The notes: generated from the letters alone by a model not told the origin. Numbered from the stretch's first letter, positions 1 through 7,850 are shown. The stretch is DNA of 8,613 nucleotides from a virus (IMGVR_UViG_2563366802_000009); one strand, 5' to 3'. A program made the numbers and translations.

Positions 1-561
1 CAGCACGCGGGCCAGCAGCCCCGGTCCTGCGATACCCCGCTCGATGGGCCGTGAAGGCGCGGGGGCCTGCACGATGGCATCGCACTGAGTACAGGCATGC
101 TTTTCACGTACAGTCCGGATAACCCGGAAGGCGCTGCGCATCAGCTCCAGCTGTTCGGCGGCATCCTCACCCAGATAGCTCAGCGAGCCTCCACATTCCG
201 GGCAGCATGACGCTGCCGGCAGCAGCCGTTTTTCATCGCGGGGGAGTGATTCGGGGAACGGTTTGCGGGTGCGGGTTTGACGCAGCGGGCGCTGCACGGC
301 CGGGTCGTCAACCCGACCGGTAAGGGTATCACTTTCTTTCTGAAGTGCCTTCAGGTCAGCTTCCATCTGTGCGATACGACGGGAGACTTTTTCCGAGCGG
401 CTGCCGAAGTTCATCCGGCGCAGCTTATCCAGCTGTGCCTGCAGATGGTCTATTTCGCGTTCACGCTCGTTCAGCTTTTCCTGCAGGGCACGGTTCAGCG
501 CCTCCTGTTCGGCAAGGAGACGTTTCAGTGCATTGATATCGTCAGGAAGTGAGCTGCTCAT
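1..561 (-). CDS. tnpC: IS66-family transposase TnpC, N-terminal 187 codons only (3' end lies beyond window start)
   Basis: Reverse-strand ATG at 561 opens a frame translating MSSSLPDDINALKRLLAEQEALNRALQEKLNEREREIDHLQAQLDKLRRMNFGSRSEK..., through a CxxC..CxxC segment, open to position 1. Absent from the ORF track because no stop lies inside the window. Recognised from memory as the leucine-zipper N-terminus of IS66 TnpC. Confidence 0.8.
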   Translation of the reverse strand, partial: MSSSLPDDINALKRLLAEQEALNRALQEKLNEREREIDHLQAQLDKLRRMNFGSRSEKVSRRIAQMEADLKALQKESDTLTGRVDDPAVQRPLRQTRTRKPFPESLPRDEKRLLPAASCCPECGGSLSYLGEDAAEQLELMRSAFRVIRTVREKHACTQCDAIVQAPAPSRPIERGIAGPGLLARVL

Positions 562-609
562 ACCGGGTATATTACCAGGCTCATTCAGCGTCGACCAGGA
601 TAAAGAGGC

Positions 610-957
610 TTACAACATAGTCAGGGACGTAAGCAGTCTTTTAGGCTGCCGCCAGTCGATACCTTCAAGGAGCATCGCCAGCTGTGCCGGTGTGAGGAAC
701 ACTTTGCCATCCCGGGCTGACGGCCAGGCGAAGCGGCCGCGCTCCAGCCGTTTGGTCAGCAGACACAGTCCATCGCCGGTAGACCAGAGGAGCTTTACCT
801 GACTGCCATTACGCCCACGGAAGATAAAAACGTGACCTGACATCGGATCGTCTTTCAGCGTCGTCTGCACCTTTGCCGCCAGGCCGTTGAAGCCGTTTCT
901 CATATCGGTGATGCCAGCGACCAGCCAGATCTTTGTCCCTGATGGTAATGGGATCAA
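610..957 (-). CDS. tnpB: IS66-family accessory protein TnpB (Orf2)
   Basis: 115 aa ORF (MIPLPSGTKIWLVAGITDMRNGFNGLAAKV...) typical of IS66 Orf2; sits between tnpA and tnpC. Confidence 0.9.
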   Translation of the reverse strand: MIPLPSGTKIWLVAGITDMRNGFNGLAAKVQTTLKDDPMSGHVFIFRGRNGSQVKLLWSTGDGLCLLTKRLERGRFAWPSARDGKVFLTPAQLAMLLEGIDWRQPKRLLTSLTML

Positions 958-1358
958 CGTTTGAGCTCCCGTATCAGCAGGTTCAGGATATTTTCGCTGA
1001 TGGCACCATTCAGACGGAGTGATCCGTGCCGGAACGTCACTTCACAGCTGATATTGAGTGATTCAGGTGTCGCAGCAGCTACAGGTTGTGACCGGGGGGA
1101 GGTTGTAGGGACAACATCTTCGGCATCAAGAGTTATCGGGAGCAGCTCAGGCACGTTGTTTTCTGTTGTTGAAGGAGGACGTAGTTTTCCTTCGCGCCAG
1201 TACTGGCGCCACTTGAACAGCAAATTATCGTTGATCCCATGCTCACGAGCGAGTTGCGCTACGGAGATCTCTGGTCGATGCGAGAGTTCAACCATTTTGA
1301 TTTTGAACTCAACGGGATAATTAGGGCTTTTTTTACGCACTGCGGTTAATGATTTCAT
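954..1358 (-). CDS. tnpA: IS66-family TnpA (Orf1), helix-turn-helix protein
   Basis: 134 aa ORF (MKSLTAVRKKSPNYPVEFKIKMVELSHRPEISVAQLAREHGINDNLLFKWRQ...); its stop overlaps the tnpB start by 4 bp, as is usual in IS66 elements. Confidence 0.9.
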   Translation of the reverse strand: MKSLTAVRKKSPNYPVEFKIKMVELSHRPEISVAQLAREHGINDNLLFKWRQYWREGKLRPPSTTENNVPELLPITLDAEDVVPTTSPRSQPVAAATPESLNISCEVTFRHGSLRLNGAISENILNLLIRELKR

Positions 1359-1517: not shown

Positions 1518-2117
1518 ATGCGTAAAGTTTGTGCAGCCATTTTGTCCGCAGCCATCTGTCTGGCCGTATCCGGTGCGCCTGCATGGGCGTCTGAGCAGCA
1601 GGCCACACTGAGCGCAGGGTATCTTCATGCCCGTACGAACGCTCCCGGCAGCGAAAATCTGAACGGGATTAACGTGAAATACCGTTATGAATTTACGGAC
1701 ACGCTGGGGCTGGTGACGTCATTCAGTTATGCCAATGCCAAAGATGAGCAAAAAACGCATTACAGCGATACCCGCTGGCATGAAGATTCAGTGCGTAACC
1801 GCTGGTTCAGCATGATGGCGGGGCCATCTGTACGCGTGAATGAATGGTTCAGTGCTTATGCGATGGCAGGTGTGGCTTACAGCCGTGTTTCGACGTTCTC
1901 CGGGGATTATCTCCGCGTAACTGACAACAAGGGGAAAACGCACGATGTGCTGACCGGAAGTGATGACGATCGCCACAGCAACACGTCTCTGGCGTGGGGA
2001 GCTAGCGTGCAGTTTAACCCGACCGAATCCGTGGCCATTGATATTGCTTATGAAGGCTCCGGCAGTGGCGACTGGCGCACTGACGGTTTCATCGTGGGTG
2101 TCGGTTATAAATTCTGA
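1518..2117 (+). CDS. lom: Lom outer-membrane protein (Ail/Lom/PagC/OmpX family beta-barrel), a lambdoid moron
   Basis: 199 aa with a signal peptide (MRKVCAAILSAAICLAVSGAPAWA) and C-terminal ...YEGSGSGDWRTDGFIVGVGYKF, near-identical to phage lambda Lom as recalled. GAGAGG Shine-Dalgarno 5 nt upstream of the ATG. Confidence 0.9.
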   Translation: MRKVCAAILSAAICLAVSGAPAWASEQQATLSAGYLHARTNAPGSENLNGINVKYRYEFTDTLGLVTSFSYANAKDEQKTHYSDTRWHEDSVRNRWFSMMAGPSVRVNEWFSAYAMAGVAYSRVSTFSGDYLRVTDNKGKTHDVLTGSDDDRHSNTSLAWGASVQFNPTESVAIDIAYEGSGSGDWRTDGFIVGVGYKF

Positions 2118-2142
2118 TTAGCCAGGTAACACAGTGTTATGA

Positions 2143-2170
2143 CAGCCCGCCGGTTCAGGCGGGCTTTTTT
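2143..2170 (+). terminator. Rho-independent terminator downstream of lom
   Basis: AGCCCGCC-GGTTCA-GGCGGGCT hairpin followed by TTTTTT, 26 bp after the lom stop and 12 bp before the stf start. Confidence 0.6.
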
Positions 2171-2181
2171 GTGGAGTGGAT

Positions 2182-4554
2182 ATGGCAGCAGTAAAAATCT
2201 CAGGTGTGCTGAAAGATGGTGCGGGAAAACCAATACAGAACTGCACTATTCAACTGAAGGCAAAGCGTAACAGCACCACGGTACTGGTGAACACGGTGGC
2301 CTCTGAAAATCCGGATGAAGCCGGGCGTTACAGCATGGATGTTGAGTATGGCCAGTACAGCGTCATCCTGCTGGTTGAAGGTTTTCCGCCTTCACATGCC
2401 GGGACCATTACCGTCTATGAAGGTTCCAGACCAGGTACGCTGAATGATTTTCTTGGTGCCATGACGGAGGATGATGCCCGTCCGGAGGCACTGCGCCGTT
2501 TTGAACTGATGGTGGAAGAAGCAGCACGCAACGCTGAAGCCGCCTCTCAGAGCGCAGCGGCGGCAAAGAAATCCGAAACTGCAGCGGCATCATCGAAGAA
2601 CGCGGCGAAAACCTCAGAAACGAATGCAGCTAATAGTGCACAGGCGGCAGCGACCTCACAGACTGCATCAGCAAACTCCGCGACAGCAGCCAAAAAATCA
2701 GAAACCAACGCGAAAAACAGCGAGACAGCCGCAAAGACGAGCGAAACCAACGCAAAGTCCAGCCAGACGGCAGCGAAAACCAGCGAAACGAATGCCAAAG
2801 CCAGTGAAACTGCGGCAAAAAACAGCCAGGTTGCAGCAGCCCAAAGCGAGAGCGCGGCAGCCGGTTCTGCGACTTCAGCAGCTGGATCAGCAACTGCTGC
2901 GGCTAACAGCCAGAAAGCTGCGAAGACGAGTGAAACTAACGCAAAGTCCAGCCAGACGGCAGCGAAGACCAGCGAAACGAATGCCAAAGCCAGCGAAACT
3001 GCGGCGAAAAACAGCCAGGATGCAGCAGCCCAAAGCGAGAGTGCCGCAGCTGGTTCTGCAAGTGCGGCGGCTTCTTCTGCCACTGCATCAGCCAACAGTC
3101 AAAAAGCAGCAAAAACCAGTGAAACCAACACAAAGGCGAGCGAGACTGCGGCGACTAACTCGGCGAAAGCATCCGCTGCAAGCCAGATGGCTGCAAAAGC
3201 AAGTGAAGACGCAGCCAGAGAGTATGCAAGCCAGGCAGCAGAGCCGTATAAATATGTCTTACAGCCACTGCCTGATGTGTGGATACCGTTTAATGACTCG
3301 ATGGATATGATTACAGGATTTGGCCCGGGATATAAAAAAATAACAGTGCGCGATGATGTGGTCACTATACCATCCGACAAAATTGTCCCGTTTTCCCGCG
3401 CGAGTTCCGCGACCTATATCAATAAGTCCGGCGCTCTTACCATTGCAGAAATTAATGAGCCACGTTTTGAAAAAGAAGGGCTGTTAATTGAAGGGCAGAG
3501 AACAAATTACTTCACAAACTCAAACGCTCCGGAATTGTGGAATAAAAATCCAGGCCTGAAGATAAGCGAGACAAAAACCGATTCCAGGGGTTTTAAATAT
3601 GCAACGTTTACCCCAGAAAAATATTTAGATAGTTCTGGCTCATATGGAATTATATCAGGGGCAGCAGCAAATAAGATAGCGGTAGTCAAAAATGATGCAG
3701 TTACAATATCCTTTAGAGCAAAAGGGGATAATGTAAGATTTGCGGCTAGATTTGATAAAGGGGATTCGCCAGTTGCTGTAGCTGCCATTTTTATTGATAG
3801 CGCCACACTAGATACATTCACGTCTGGAGCAGATGCGTCTAATATTGCTGTGAAAAATGTTGTTCGTGACGGTGAGTGGGTTGCTGTAGAGGCTGTTTAT
3901 AAAGTAACAGACGACTCTACATATATTAACGGCGCCATTCTGATGTCAAACAAACTGGGTGCTAATTTTGATAAGACTAGTTTTATGGATGTAACCACCC
4001 CTCAAATAGAGCTAGGTTCTTGCTTATCATCATTTATTGTCACACCAGGTGTTCCTGCGACAAGGGCGAGTGATATGGTTATTTTTTCAACCAGAAATAA
4101 CATAAGTTCTGTCCCTTTAAGCTGTCTTGTTGAAATACATAAAAATTGGGACTCTACGCCAAATCAGTCCCCACGAATTTTAACCACTATTGGCGTGGCG
4201 ACTAATGATGAACAACTGGTATTTGCTTTCAGGACGCCTACAAGTCCGGATGTAGAACCTTTACCTTATGTTCAGTTTGGAGTGAGATCTGCATATCTTA
4301 GTCCATTTGTGAAGGCCGGGCGCAAAATGATTGCTGGTTTTGTCTGTAATAGCTCGACTGAATTTCGTTGCAGTTGTAATAGTTACCTGTCACCTGTTCA
4401 GACTTCGTCATGGAAGAATACCGGAGCTGCACATGAAATACGTATTGGGGGAACTTCTGCTGGAGGAGAACGTCACTTGTTTGGTCACGTTCGTAACCTG
4501 AGAATATGGCATAAAGAATTAACTGATGCGCAAATGGGGGAGAGTATTAAATGA
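2182..4554 (+). CDS. stf: Side tail fibre protein (Stf-like), mosaic: lambda-like N-terminus, repeat shaft, divergent low-GC C-terminal module
   Basis: N-terminus MAAVKISGVLKDGAGKPIQNCTIQLKAKRNSTTVLVNTVASENPDEAGRYSMDVEYGQYSVILLVEGFPPSHAGTITVYEGSRPGTLNDFLGAMTEDDARPEALRR matches lambda Stf from memory. Ala/Ser/Thr/Lys-rich 14-residue repeats follow (KTSETNAKSSQTAA...). The C-terminal ~520 aa is AT-rich and ends ...GHVRNLRIWHKELTDAQMGE, which resembles the C-terminal strand motif of concanavalin-A-like/LamG jelly-roll domains (inference). Start placed at ATG 2182 (GGAG 5 nt upstream) rather than the track's GTG at 2176. Confidence 0.85.
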   Translation: MAAVKISGVLKDGAGKPIQNCTIQLKAKRNSTTVLVNTVASENPDEAGRYSMDVEYGQYSVILLVEGFPPSHAGTITVYEGSRPGTLNDFLGAMTEDDARPEALRRFELMVEEAARNAEAASQSAAAAKKSETAAASSKNAAKTSETNAANSAQAAATSQTASANSATAAKKSETNAKNSETAAKTSETNAKSSQTAAKTSETNAKASETAAKNSQVAAAQSESAAAGSATSAAGSATAAANSQKAAKTSETNAKSSQTAAKTSETNAKASETAAKNSQDAAAQSESAAAGSASAAASSATASANSQKAAKTSETNTKASETAATNSAKASAASQMAAKASEDAAREYASQAAEPYKYVLQPLPDVWIPFNDSMDMITGFGPGYKKITVRDDVVTIPSDKIVPFSRASSATYINKSGALTIAEINEPRFEKEGLLIEGQRTNYFTNSNAPELWNKNPGLKISETKTDSRGFKYATFTPEKYLDSSGSYGIISGAAANKIAVVKNDAVTISFRAKGDNVRFAARFDKGDSPVAVAAIFIDSATLDTFTSGADASNIAVKNVVRDGEWVAVEAVYKVTDDSTYINGAILMSNKLGANFDKTSFMDVTTPQIELGSCLSSFIVTPGVPATRASDMVIFSTRNNISSVPLSCLVEIHKNWDSTPNQSPRILTTIGVATNDEQLVFAFRTPTSPDVEPLPYVQFGVRSAYLSPFVKAGRKMIAGFVCNSSTEFRCSCNSYLSPVQTSSWKNTGAAHEIRIGGTSAGGERHLFGHVRNLRIWHKELTDAQMGESIK
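2731..3059 (+). repeat. Two ~140 bp direct repeats (2731..2870 and 2920..3059) with a 189 bp period inside the stf shaft region
   Basis: By eye the copies differ at about 10 of 140 positions. The 189 bp offset is 63 codons, so both are in frame, each encoding ...KTSETNAKSSQTAAKTSETNAKASETAAKNSQ(V/D)AAAQSESAAAGSA. Confidence 0.8.
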
Positions 4555-4832
4555 AAGATTTAACACTCAAATTTGCAGACAGGGCCGACTTTTCGGCCTT
4601 TATGGAGAGCATTGGCTATTATGATGACGAGTCGATGCAGGATGATATTCTTATTGACGTGATAGGTAATGTGTACAAAGAAACCGGAGAACTGACTGAA
4701 GATGGCGAACCGGTATGTGTTAAGGAAGACGGATATTTTGTAAACGTGCGCATCATTAATGATGCAAAAAAATCGTCAATATTTGATGAATACGCGGTTG
4801 TAGTTGAACATCAACTTCGTGGCTGGATGTGA
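4551..4832 (+). CDS. Hypothetical small acidic protein (93 aa), translationally coupled to stf
   Basis: Start ATG overlaps the stf stop (ATGA at 4551..4554), with GGGGGAG upstream. About 21 Asp/Glu versus 9 Lys/Arg, net charge roughly -12. AT-rich like the stf 3' half. No family recognised. Confidence 0.55.
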   Translation: MKDLTLKFADRADFSAFMESIGYYDDESMQDDILIDVIGNVYKETGELTEDGEPVCVKEDGYFVNVRIINDAKKSSIFDEYAVVVEHQLRGWM

Positions 4833-4841
4833 GGGAGACAA

Positions 4842-5546
4842 ATGGCTACATCGACAGTAATTCCGGGAGACATCACCACGCTGAAGGGAGATGTCAGTAA
4901 AGCGAAGGAAGATATTTCCTCAATTAACGGTAAAGTGTCAATGCTTCAGACTGATATGACCAGTGCAAAGCAGGATATCAGCTCCAGATACACAAAAACT
5001 GAAGTTGATAATAAGCTGAAAAACAAAGTAGAAGTGAACGATCTGGAAAGTGGTCGTTATGGCGGAGATTTTTATCCACTGACAGGTCGTGAAGCGTTTT
5101 ATTTATGGGGATTGGGCACAACTACAGCGGCGGCAAATCTTTATCTTAATCCTGACCCTGCAATTTCGTCTGTGCTGCGGTCAACATCGTCTATCCGCTA
5201 TAAACATTCAGTAGAGACGATAGATTCAGAGCACGCCGATCTCATTTTCAGGATGCGCCCTGTATGGTACAGGTCGCAATGCGAAAATGACAGGCGTGAC
5301 TGGGGATTCTACGGATTGATTGCCGAGGAAGTAGGAGAAATTGCCCCTCAGTTTGTACACTGGCGACCAGCTAACGAGAATGATGCTCCTGAAGCTATTT
5401 CCAGCAATGGACTTGTTGCCGAAGGTGTAATGTACGAATGTCTGGTTGTTCCACTGATTCACCATATCCAGAAACTGACTGAAAGAGTTGATGAACTTGA
5501 GTCAGAATTAAAGTTGTTATTAACTTCCCGAAGCGATATTAGATAA
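4842..5546 (+). CDS. Small tail-fibre-like protein (234 aa) with a C-terminal peptidase S74-like intramolecular chaperone domain
   Basis: GAGGGAG Shine-Dalgarno 6 nt upstream. N-terminus carries two ~20-residue repeats (LKGDVSKAKEDISSINGKVS / LQTDMTSAKQDISSRYTKTE). The C-terminal half matches the S74 chaperone consensus as recalled: SSIRYK (Ser...Lys at i and i+5), LIFRMRPVWYR, GFYGLIAEEVGEIAPQFV, then YECLVVPLIHHIQKLTERVDELESEL. Confidence 0.7.
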   Translation: MATSTVIPGDITTLKGDVSKAKEDISSINGKVSMLQTDMTSAKQDISSRYTKTEVDNKLKNKVEVNDLESGRYGGDFYPLTGREAFYLWGLGTTTAAANLYLNPDPAISSVLRSTSSIRYKHSVETIDSEHADLIFRMRPVWYRSQCENDRRDWGFYGLIAEEVGEIAPQFVHWRPANENDAPEAISSNGLVAEGVMYECLVVPLIHHIQKLTERVDELESELKLLLTSRSDIR

Positions 5547-5556
5547 AGGAGGAGTA

Positions 5557-5850
5557 ATGGATATAACACCTTTTCTTCATGCGCTTTGTGCTGTGGCTGC
5601 GCAGACACTGGTTGGTCTTTTTACCGGAAACTGGGCTTATGGGGCGATAGCTGGTTGTACGTTCTTCATTGCGCGTGAACACACCCAGGCAGAATATCGC
5701 TGGATTGAAATGTTCGGGCATGGCAAGCGGATTAACATGCCGTGGTGGGGCGGTTTTGATCCGCGTGTTTGGGATGTGGCAAGCCTGATGGATTTTGCTG
5801 TGCCGGTGGTGGCGTGTCTGCTGATCTGGCTGTTGGTTAATCGTGGGTGA
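5557..5850 (+). CDS. Hypothetical small membrane protein (97 aa, 2-3 predicted transmembrane segments)
   Basis: Strong Shine-Dalgarno (AAGGAGGAG) 2-4 nt upstream of the ATG. Hydrophobic stretches at residues ~3-39 and ~71-94 flank a Trp/Gly/Arg-rich loop (RWIEMFGHGKRINMPWWGGFDPRVW). More GC-rich than the two preceding genes. No family recognised. Confidence 0.55.
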   Translation: MDITPFLHALCAVAAQTLVGLFTGNWAYGAIAGCTFFIAREHTQAEYRWIEMFGHGKRINMPWWGGFDPRVWDVASLMDFAVPVVACLLIWLLVNRG

Positions 5851-5860
5851 AAAAAGGTGA

Positions 5861-5980
5861 GCTGTATATGCAACGGAGGAAGAAACCCCGTTGCTGGAAG
5901 CCAGGAAAAAGTATCGGGTGTTGCTGAACCGTGTTGATACGTCAACTGCACAGGATATTGAATGGCCAGCACTGCCGTAG
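5861..5980 (+). pseudogene. tfa: 3' remnant (~40 codons) of a tail fibre assembly gene tfa; no start codon, 5' part missing
   Basis: Frame open 5861..5977 encodes [39 protein letters not shown], matching the conserved C-terminus of lambda-type Tfa (...[31 protein letters not shown]..., recalled). An in-frame TGA lies at 5858..5860. Confidence 0.7.
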
Positions 5981-6077
5981 GGTAAAACATATAAATTCTA
6001 TAATTAGATGTATCTTTCCATTTACGGCAAGGAAGGGGGCTTGGAAGACGTAAAGCATCTCACACCGAGATTATTTT

Positions 6078-6668
6078 TTATATGTCAGGTGTCTGAAGTT
6101 TTGCTTTGGCTCTTAAAATGGTTTGCCGCGAGGTTTTGAATTCCCGGGCAATGGCACTTATACTTACACCTGACTTAATCCGTTCGAATACCACCTGTTT
6201 CTGTTCTTCATTTAACACAGGTGGTCGACCAAAACGTTTCCCTGCGCCCCGGGCTCTTACTATCCCGGAATGAGTGCGTTCAAGTAAAAGGTCTCGTTCA
6301 AATTCAGCGACTGCTGAAATTACTTGCATCATCATTTTTCCTGTTGGACTGGTCAGGTCAATGCCCCCCAATGCTAAGCAATGCACTCTGATACCTGTTT
6401 CGGTCAGTTGTTCCACTGTTTTCCTGATATCCATTGCATTACAACCAAGGCGATCCAATTTTGTCACAATCAATTGATCACCACATTTCAGGCGAGCAAG
6501 CAACCGGTTAAAACCAGGACGCTCACTGGTTGCTGCTGAGCCGCTAATGTGTTCTTCGATTATTTGCTGAGGTTTGATTTTAAAACCTGCACTTTCGATT
6601 TCCCGGCGTTGATTTTCGGTGGTCTGATCCAGCGTTGATATCCGACAGTAAGCAAAAATTCGAGACAT
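6078..6668 (-). CDS. pinR: Serine recombinase (resolvase/invertase family), positional equivalent of Rac PinR
   Basis: 196 aa; N-terminus [20 protein letters not shown] carries the catalytic-serine motif of small serine recombinases, and the C-terminal region reads as a helix-turn-helix ([23 protein letters not shown]). Convergent with the tail-fibre operon, as pin is in Rac/Qin/e14 (recalled). Confidence 0.85.
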
Positions 6669-6984
6669 AGTGAGACTCTATACGAAATTGGTGTTCATAT
6701 CATAATGCATCTCAGAAAATAATTTTGATTATTTTTGTGCATATTTGTATGTACACGTTCGAAAATAAACGAATGCGTATGCAACCCCGTAATTTTGGTG
6801 AGACCCAAAATCGATTTTGTGAAAAATGGCTTTAACTCGGTTTGTTTTTCGAGTTCCGGGCGGACTCAAGGAAGAAGAATAGTGTTGCGTGTTATTTTAA
6901 CCAGATTTCAAGTTGTTTGGTCGTGGAAAAGTGGAGCAAAATGTTGTTAAAGTGGAAAAATGATAAAAAAGTAAGTTTATTATA

Positions 6985-7218
6985 TTACATTTTACCATTT
7001 AAATTTTGGTTGTCTTTAAGAACTGATATCGCTGTTTGTAATAATTCTTTGTTATCCAGCCATGATTTTTTCTTTATGTTTCCTTCAATGTAATCAAGCA
7101 ATGTTCTGGTATTGATAGGTCTTCCCTGTTTTGCTACTTCCACTACAGCATCCGCTAGGATAATTCTTACTTCAGGAAGCTGCGCAGGGAACCACTTTAG
7201 GGTGTCTTTTGATTTCAT
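6985..7218 (-). CDS. ynaE: YnaE/YdfK-family prophage cold-shock-induced protein (77 aa)
   Basis: MKSKDTLKWFPAQLPEVRIILADAVVEVAKQGRPINTRTLLDYIEGNIKKKSWLDNKELLQTAISVLKDNQNLNGKM matches E. coli YnaE/YdfK from memory. Start placed at ATG 7218 (AAGGAA 7 nt upstream) rather than the track's ATG at 7251, which would add 11 residues. Confidence 0.8.
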   Translation of the reverse strand: MKSKDTLKWFPAQLPEVRIILADAVVEVAKQGRPINTRTLLDYIEGNIKKKSWLDNKELLQTAISVLKDNQNLNGKM

Positions 7219-7450: not shown

Positions 7451-7790
7451 TCTTGGGTGTTCTTAAAGTTCGTAGATAAACATTGTCGTTTCAGGTATAC
7501 AGGAATGCTAACAGGTGGCAGCAAAAATCAGGCGGTTTATGGCGCAAGCTGAAGCGGCAACTGCAAACTATCTTATGCAGAGACTCTACACGGATTGGGT
7601 TTAAAAGTATACATAGATAACAGTTTTTATCTGAAGAAGAAAAATATCAAGGTGATATAGCCTATATGCCTATGATGCGGAGGAATGAATGTGATGGGAG
7701 TGATGTATCTGAATAGTTGAAAAACCGCAGTCACGTCGTATGCAAGAACGTGCTGCGGTTGGTTTGACTTTGATTGAGACGTTTTGGAAT

Positions 7791-7850
7791 TTTTTTTTGT
7801 GGCAAAAATGGGGCAAAACGCTGCAAAAGGGGCAAAAAAGGGGCAAAAAA
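7791..7850. repeat. T9 tract followed by five helically phased G(G)GCAAAA(A) A-tract repeats (predicted intrinsically curved DNA)
   Basis: TTTTTTTTT at 7791..7799, then GCAAAA beginning at 7802, 7813, 7823, 7832 and 7843 (spacings 11, 10, 9, 11 bp). Confidence 0.7.

Follow-up and report, generated by a model that had tools for sequence, protein, structure and literature searches.

A widespread modular side-tail-fibre locus of lambdoid prophages carries two small protein families without prior characterisation

What occupies the place of the tail fibre assembly gene tfa when three small genes follow the side tail fibre gene stf of a lambdoid prophage? The question is raised by an 8,613-nucleotide stretch of viral DNA (IMGVR_UViG_2563366802_000009; the whole stretch is hereafter called the window), which comprises the right-hand end of a lambdoid prophage inserted at the Escherichia coli Rac site. 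In K-12 Rac, stfR is followed directly by tfaR and then by pinR, an order correctly given in the original prediction, a reading of the sequence alone that had singled out the three open reading frames (ORFs) behind stf as a candidate for an undescribed system. These ORFs, of 93, 234 and 97 amino acids (orf93, orf234 and orf97), are indeed present, each with a strong ribosome-binding site. The locus, however, is a known, widespread and annotated type of modular side-tail-fibre module, and neither an undescribed system nor a new defence system; the new remainder consists of orf93 and orf97, two small families without prior characterisation. The features that the argument needs, all on the plus strand, are the following.

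2176-4554, plus strand: stf, side tail fibre of 792 amino acids, with phage_tail_N, GTA_spike_fiber and Laminin_G_3 (just sub-threshold) matches, a match to 6tb9 and a tandem repeat
2535-5868, plus strand: exchanged module (distal part of stf and the three genes), delimited by blastn against the DH1 Rac region
4551-4832, plus strand: orf93, small acidic alpha/beta protein of 93 amino acids; proposed Tfa-replacing assembly factor or tip subunit
4842-5546, plus strand: orf234, putative minimal distal fibre of 234 amino acids, with Peptidase_S74, an SSIRYK motif and a conserved N-terminal peptide
5557-5850, plus strand: orf97, predicted three-helix integral membrane protein of 97 amino acids (AlphaFold2 (AF2) model; phrog_1443)
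5870-5980, plus strand: 3′ remnant of tfa, 36 codons and a stop without a start codon, matching the TfaR C-terminus

Strong Shine-Dalgarno sequences precede all three small genes: GGGGGAGAG lies 5′ of the ATG at 4551 (orf93), GAGGGAGA 5′ of 4842 (orf234) and AAGGAGGAG 5′ of 5557 (orf97). The orf93 ATG and the stf stop codon overlap as ATGA. A simple consensus scan of the plus strand found neither promoter-like nor terminator-like sites at 2176-5990, including the interval from stf to orf97. Since homologues of 35-53% identity keep the length and 15-20 invariant residues, the cassette ORFs are, as judged from this conservation, real genes, and chance ORFs are excluded.

Of 5426 complete E. coli genomes, 723 cover the 1.3-kb cassette of the three genes to at least 80%, and 1904 contain parts of it; in strain 3359 (NZ_CP103739.1) it is 100% identical. 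The Prokaryotic Genome Annotation Pipeline (PGAP) labels the trio as 'hypothetical protein / tail fiber domain-containing protein / hypothetical protein'. Besides the Rac site, the cassette is found at the DLP12 site, the block from orf93 through orf234 and orf97 to the tfa remnant is present in the Qin prophage of BLR(DE3) (locus 3824-7181), where stf is truncated by the insertion sequence (IS) IS3, and phage isolates such as PhiR49_1 carry all three genes undamaged. The locus is also homologous to Gp22-Gp23-Gp24 of phage IrisVonRoten (Bas32; PMC11990801). With this frequency, annotation and homology, the claim of an undescribed system falls. The original prediction had named, as the finding that would speak against it, a common and annotated arrangement whose products are shown to be virion or assembly proteins; the arrangement is common and annotated, and the virion or assembly roles of the products are predicted ones.

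The fibre itself accounts for much of the layout. The Stf protein begins with a tail-attachment domain (residues 5-134, Pfam phage_tail_N, E 2.4e-67) that is 92% identical to K-12 StfR over residues 5-125, and continues into an Ala/Ser/Thr-rich shaft. Within the shaft-coding sequence lies a tandem repeat of 189 nucleotides (2.3 copies, 84% match, window 2716-3154) with nested 21- and 42-nucleotide periodicities, and shaft length could vary by unequal recombination in it. Further on, residues 437-631 resemble the head spike fibre of gene transfer agents (NCBIfam GTA_spike_fiber, 'phage head spike fiber', 56.6 bits, cut-off 36), the solved structure matched by the C-terminal ~420 residues is the RcGTA head spike fibre (PDB 6tb9, E 5e-4), and the extreme C-terminus is ConA/LamG-like (Laminin_G_3, 26.2 bits, slightly below the cut-off of 27.6). 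The same ~420 residues are homologous to the fibre ends of phage 21, T1-like PeterMerian, T5-like T5_ev219 and IrisVonRoten, 9g-like JenP1 and the Vequintavirus naswa. These matches indicate that the Stf tip is of a carbohydrate-binding lectin type, replacing the Tfa-dependent tip of the lambda/Rac type. The difference in tip class would account for the replacement of tfa by another partner gene.

How the replacement lies in the genome can be read from a blastn comparison with the DH1 Rac region. Homology stops at 2534, inside stf as had been predicted, and resumes at 5869, from where identity is 98.98% to the window end. The differing segment, 2535-5868, starts where the conserved N-terminal domain of Stf ends and extends up to the final 112 nucleotides of tfa; a segment was replaced, as predicted, and it is larger than the cassette. 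The prediction that tfa is displaced with its 3′ end surviving was also borne out: the remnant is in frame, its translation matches the K-12 TfaR C-terminus, and PGAP lists it as a pseudogene in ET210, BLR(DE3) and CFSAN061770. We compared the junction of the orf97 stop codon with the tfa remnant (window 5851-5990, BLR(DE3) locus 7001-7191, and two further loci at 7636-7826 and 5526-5716) and found it to be base-identical in phage PhiR49_1 and at all three prophage sites, Rac, Qin and DLP12, while the far end of the remnant varies by tfa allele. The identical junction therefore points to one old deletion event, later spread by recombination in conserved flanks; from the alignments, these flanks seem to be the Stf N-terminal domain on the left and the ~110-nucleotide 3′ end of tfa on the right.

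The cassette had further been described as AT-rich and as imported in one block by illegitimate or modular recombination. The AT-rich block spans 3301-5546 and comprises the C-terminal 417 codons of stf (GC fraction 0.415), orf93 (0.404) and orf234 (0.440), but orf97, with a GC fraction of 0.524 close to that of the tfa remnant (0.523), lies outside it. The identity of orf97 moreover stays constant while its neighbours are swapped. Modular exchange through conserved flanks thus stands, and import of the three genes as a single block does not. Nor do they always travel together, as had been asked. They commonly do, but depending on the prophage, a 234-amino-acid gene, a 346-amino-acid gene (phrog_4563) or nothing fills the slot that separates the small protein from orf97, and orf97 also occurs behind unrelated receptor-binding protein (RBP) genes.

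What, then, is the gene that directly follows stf? The orf93 product is highly acidic, as predicted, with an isoelectric point (pI) of 4.19 and 21 Asp/Glu against 9 Lys/Arg residues. It belongs to phrog_1361, with phrog_18574 as a sister family. Across 55 homologues no Pfam or NCBIfam family, the Tfa families included, was matched at E up to 1, and its profile found no match among PDB sequences under E 0.2. The AF2 model (pLDDT, its predicted local distance difference test score, 84) has a small alpha/beta fold and a disordered yet conserved C-terminal R-x-W tail; Foldseek against BFVD returned uncharacterised phage proteins only and no informative structural neighbour. Literature searches on the small protein, on phage 21 fibres and on accessory proteins of chimeric stf genes gave nothing specific.

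By genomic position, orf93 has tblastn matches in 183 phage records, most of which, among the matches listed, lie under or beside a tail-fibre gene. At every locus examined a homologue stands directly 3′ of the lectin-type tip, as in phage 21, PeterMerian, T5_ev219, IrisVonRoten (Gp23), JenP1, naswa and E. ruysiae; a Comamonas prophage has the same gene order with a distant homologue from phrog_18574. The phages concerned span lambdoid, T1-like, T5-like and 9g-like siphoviruses and rV5-like myoviruses, both temperate and strictly virulent. Among the arrangements inspected in 159 E. coli prophage loci from IMG/VR, all have a gene of ~90 codons after stf, in three allelic types, and the loci first taken as lacking orf93 carry an 89-amino-acid variant of it. 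The presence of orf93 is independent of the distal fibre. Like a Tfa gene, then, orf93 lies directly downstream of the fibre gene and co-varies with the tip. The likeness to stf-tfa of lambda and K-12 Rac is that of a late-operon gene directly after stf and tied to the tip type; orf93 differs in being half the size of the 191-residue TfaR and in accompanying a lectin-type rather than a Tfa-dependent tip. Since no Tfa family was matched and only position and proposed role are analogous, we do not class orf93 as a Tfa. From gene order and tip association, it is most likely a functional stand-in for Tfa, either an assembly factor or a retained tip subunit.

Phage 21 (OL657228, CPT_21_22/23/24) gives a close parallel without a distal fibre. 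There, J is followed by a stf with the same tip type (41% identity over residues 240-791), a 92-residue protein 53% identical to orf93 and a 97-residue membrane protein 94% identical to orf97, and tfa is absent; it differs from the window in having no S74 distal fibre between the small and the membrane protein, and in carrying sitDCBA instead of the tfa remnant and pin.

The predicted S74 chaperone domain of orf234 is present: residues 116-172 match Peptidase_S74 (PF13884) with 27.3 bits against a gathering cut-off of 22, and the chaperone region spans residues 116-234. The SSIRYK motif (S-x-x-R-x-K), of which S116, R119 and K121 are invariant with three homologues, provides a Ser116/Lys121 dyad, and the intramolecular chaperone (IMC) region matches PDB 8hqz_d ('L-shaped tail fiber assembly', a 1076-residue chain; E 1.5e-5). 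From these residues, self-cleavage at Ser116 is predicted, leaving a mature fibre of ~115 residues. The whole protein reads as a docking peptide (residues 1-16), a coiled coil, a small T5-like tip and the S74 chaperone. It is without a tail-attachment domain and is separately encoded, as in two-part fibres of the Bas32 type. Its first 16 residues, M(A/V)TxT(V/I)IPxDI(T/K)xLK, are conserved with distal fibres of 227-574 amino acids, namely PeterMerian gp29 (231 residues), a 573-residue protein of T5_ev219, IrisVonRoten Gp24 (574 residues), a 351-residue protein of JenP1 and prophage variants of 346 and 227 residues.

With a chaperone domain making up more than half of orf234, its product could be suspected of acting in trans, folding or trimerising Stf with orf93 as a co-chaperone and neither protein ending up in the virion. 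The small mature part would suit such a role, as would the annotation of the PeterMerian homologue as a putative lateral tail fiber chaperone and the result of a Pfam scan, which found no S74 domain in Stf itself. Yet phage 21 and ~20 IMG/VR prophage loci combine the same Stf tip type and an orf93 homologue with no S74 gene, so the S74 protein is dispensable for the tip. S74 domains, besides, are known to act in cis. The N-terminal 16 residues of orf234 are, moreover, common to proteins of 346-574 amino acids with clear receptor-binding domains (PMC11990801). Taken together, these points make a trans-acting chaperone quite improbable.

A second reading takes the genes as inert relics of a defective Rac-type prophage, with orf234 as the cut-off 3′ end of a longer S74 fibre gene. 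The orf234 protein does align with positions 1147-1383, the C-terminus, of the 1385-position long-fibre family phrog_3299; the window holds an IS66 fragment upstream and the tfa remnant downstream, and the stf next to the cassette in BLR(DE3) is cut short by IS3. All three ORFs, however, are intact behind their strong ribosome-binding sites, the trio has stayed whole in PhiR49_1, and the virulent PeterMerian keeps the 231-residue homologue. The N-terminal docking peptide, too, is specific to separate distal-fibre genes. Decay of this kind therefore strikes us as very unlikely. Because the docking peptide is common to distal fibres, because only the RBD1 insertion is missing in comparison with Gp24, and because the slot is exchangeable, orf234 is, on these comparisons, a true distal-fibre gene of minimal size rather than a cut-off relic.

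The comparison with Bas32 shows how such parts may fit together. IrisVonRoten has a proximal fibre with a galectin-like C-terminal domain and a T-shaped distal fibre with an intramolecular chaperone (PMC11990801). Its Gp22-Gp23-Gp24 genes have the same order and the same ATGA-type coupling as stf, orf93 and orf234. Identity to the Bas32 counterpart is 39% for Stf residues 133-791 with Gp22 (745 aligned positions) and 37% for orf93 with Gp23, and orf234 and Gp24 have the docking peptide and the region of tip plus IMC in common. The differences are that the Stf attachment domain is lambdoid (phage_tail_N) where that of Bas32 is T5-type, that orf234 is without the ~340-residue insertion holding the Gp12-like receptor-binding domain RBD1 of Gp24, and that Bas32 has no orf97. 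The paper calls the proximal fibre Gp22 in one passage and Gp23 in another (PMC11990801); in NC_130053.1, bas32_0023 is the 92-residue orf93 homologue. In the T5-like phages DT57C and DT571/2, likewise, a tail-bound proximal fibre, LtfA, bears a separately encoded S74 fibre, LtfB (PMC4728585, PMC10713586). There, however, LtfA itself ends in S74 and the LtfB N-terminus resembles phiEco32 gp15 (PMC4728585); the layout of a lectin-type tip with orf93 is absent and no small intervening gene is described (PMC4728585, PMC10713586). A further study, PMC12309495, concerns central-fibre RBPs and was set aside as not relevant to the locus.

The explanation that we favour, and consider fairly probable, is that the locus forms the variable terminal part of a late operon of the lambdoid type, encoding a modular and probably branched side tail fibre together with a perhaps host-directed orf97. 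The Stf N-terminal domain would anchor the fibre to the tail tip, and its lectin-type C-terminal tip would bind carbohydrate. The orf93 protein, translationally coupled to stf, would fold or assemble the tip and possibly stay bound as a small subunit. The orf234 protein would trimerise through its coiled coil, and its S74 domain would fold the small tip and then cut itself off at Ser116, leaving ~115 residues; by homology with Gp22/Gp24, the mature protein would hang on Stf as a second receptor-binding branch. The orf97 protein would be no part of the fibre, but an inner-membrane protein of cellular ancestry, apparently co-transcribed with the fibre genes. The module as a whole would have replaced the distal stf and the tfa of the K-12 Rac type through recombination in the conserved flanks. 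Of the alternative receptor-binding or chaperone module that had been proposed for all three genes, orf93 and orf234 fit the description, while orf97 falls outside the fibre.

Several points weigh against this explanation. We infer the binding of orf93 to Stf from sequence, and the docking of orf234 on Stf by analogy with the branched-fibre literature (PMC4728585, PMC10713586, PMC11990801); the published docking of Bas32 Gp24 onto the proximal Gp22 is itself an AlphaFold-Multimer prediction, and the 92-residue Gp23 is never discussed in that paper (PMC11990801). A mature distal fibre of ~115 residues is very small for a receptor-binding protein, and the BASEL annotators labelled the 231-residue PeterMerian homologue 'putative lateral tail fiber chaperone'. 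The role given to orf97 is a guess, and orf97 does not look like a classic moron, because the simple scan shows no promoter or terminator of its own. Finally, the prophage of the window may be defective, given the IS66 fragment upstream and the absence of the J gene from the window.

As for orf97, the predicted membrane protein was confirmed by an AF2 model (pLDDT 93) with three long helices (residues 4-23, 26-53 and 74-96). It had no Pfam or PDB match, and a Pfam scan across 67 homologues gave sub-threshold noise only (the PhoR transmembrane region and one weak holin match). A profile search of 1.84 billion cluster representatives returned 445 relatives; since all 150 of those listed are stand-alone small proteins (63-146 residues), no domain fusion offers a clue to function. 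Invariant or near-invariant polar positions are H8 and Q16 in helix 1, R40-E41-H42, E46, R48, a PWWGGF loop, and D79 in helix 3. In E. coli prophages orf97 is 94-95% identical whatever small protein or distal fibre precedes it; with its GC content unlike that of orf93 and orf234, this assigns it to the constant right flank. Best-HSP identities for the C-terminal part of stf in that comparison came from inconsistent HSPs and were set aside. In other genomes orf97 stands behind unrelated receptor-binding genes: a podovirus tail fibre, a Leclercia tailspike-like gene and a Comamonas gpJ-like giant.

Homologues also occur outside prophages. In Aeromonas, the homologue (56-57% identity) is a non-prophage chromosomal gene, with a Pirin gene upstream in three of the species sampled, and alphaproteobacterial chromosomal copies adjoin ligA and other housekeeping genes. 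In A. rivipollensis (locus 6001-6309) the homologue has a Pirin gene on one side and a RIO1-kinase gene on the other, and two genes for lipid A acyltransferases are close by. An orf97-like sequence 93% identical was seen in a Collinsella metagenome-assembled genome (2.8-kb contig) and others in Desulfovibrio piger on 877-bp scaffolds; these are probably Enterobacteriaceae assembly contamination.

Two functional guesses were compared with these data. Hints of a holin come from podophage phiv142-3, where orf97 adjoins lysis genes, and from the three uncharacterised small genes that follow the Comamonas prophage homologue. Lambdoid phages, however, have their own lysis cassette elsewhere. We rejected orf97 as a holin, as it has no charged tail at the C-terminus and, in Aeromonas, is a chromosomal gene outside prophages. 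Exclusion proteins are the other comparison: Llp of T5 and Cor of phi80, N15 and T1 are encoded beside RBP genes, and orf97 is likewise a small envelope protein after RBP genes. Here the differences are that no sequence relation to orf97 was found, that orf97 is without an L-[AS]-[GA]-C lipobox (residues 7-11 read LHALC), and that it does not co-vary with fibre type and has core-like chromosomal homologues in Aeromonas. The evidence points weakly to a host-directed role, most likely envelope modification or conversion, or exclusion.

This leads to the remaining alternative, that the cassette, or orf93 and/or orf97, is moron cargo, with orf93 as an acidic DNA-mimic anti-restriction protein and orf97 as a defence or abortive-infection membrane protein. 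The small size and very acidic character of orf93 agree with it, as do the cellular homologues of orf97 outside prophages and its GC content unlike that of its neighbours. The end of the tail-fibre region is also a known moron site, and in phage 21 the sitABCD genes come immediately after orf97. On the other side, PADLOC-DB v2 gave no family for orf93, orf234 or orf97 at E up to 1, and the simple scan found no promoter or terminator within the cassette. The orf93 gene, in addition, is tied to one tip type and has an overlapping start codon, both in temperate phages and in strictly virulent ones, across several families. We therefore rejected a defence or anti-defence function for orf93 and orf234, which have no PADLOC match and the former of which is bound to fibre genes even in virulent phages; for orf97 such a function is weakly possible. 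Cargo as a whole we regard as unlikely, and the cargo reading for orf97 overlaps with its host-directed role in the branched-fibre explanation. The sitDCBA iron/manganese transporter genes of phage 21 (locus 5001-8835) lie directly after the orf97 homologue on the opposite strand, which marks the position as a cargo site.

The range of O-antigen or capsule types accessible to a phage is set by its side or lateral tail fibres, and retargeting of phages, or of delivery particles derived from them, is done by exchanging these parts. The locus is ordinary in kind and opens no new field, but the biochemical roles of the orf93 and orf97 families merit targeted experiment. We put forward, tentatively and at less than even chances, a broader proposal. 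The orf93 family may form a distinct and widespread partner class for lectin-type receptor-binding tips, as a Tfa-independent chaperone or as a tip subunit doubling as a docking platform for the distal fibre; orf97, whose transmembrane helices have conserved His, Gln and Asp, may be a membrane protein of three helices that phages took from cells and set behind RBP genes on repeated occasions, where it would change the envelope of infected or lysogenic cells. If orf93 is an obligatory partner, chimeras with a lectin-type tip must carry it, as Tfa accompanies lambda-type tips, which would be a practical design rule. The design has three slots, one for the tip with its partner, one that is empty or holds a distal fibre with a universal plug of 16 residues, and one for the constant membrane protein, and prophages at the Rac, Qin and DLP12 sites can therefore exchange fibre specificities through the conserved flanks. 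The cassette in BLR(DE3), a commercial E. coli expression strain, is unannotated in its Qin prophage.

Upstream of stf, lom is intact and has a terminator; the J gene lies outside the window. The IS66-family element fragment is located just 5′ of lom at window 1-1358 on the minus strand and contains TnpB_IS66 (610-957) and an HTH_Tnp_1 orfA (954-1358). Inverted repeats able to bound an invertible fibre segment were absent from window 2000-6800, and Pin-driven inversion of the cassette was rejected on that account. Downstream of the cassette, pinR is intact (window 6078-6668, minus strand, 196 residues, Resolvase and HTH_7 domains) and has the appearance of an orphan invertase; a ydfK-type cold-shock gene and uspF also lie on this side, with ompN and nifJ beyond them in the best-matching annotated genome.

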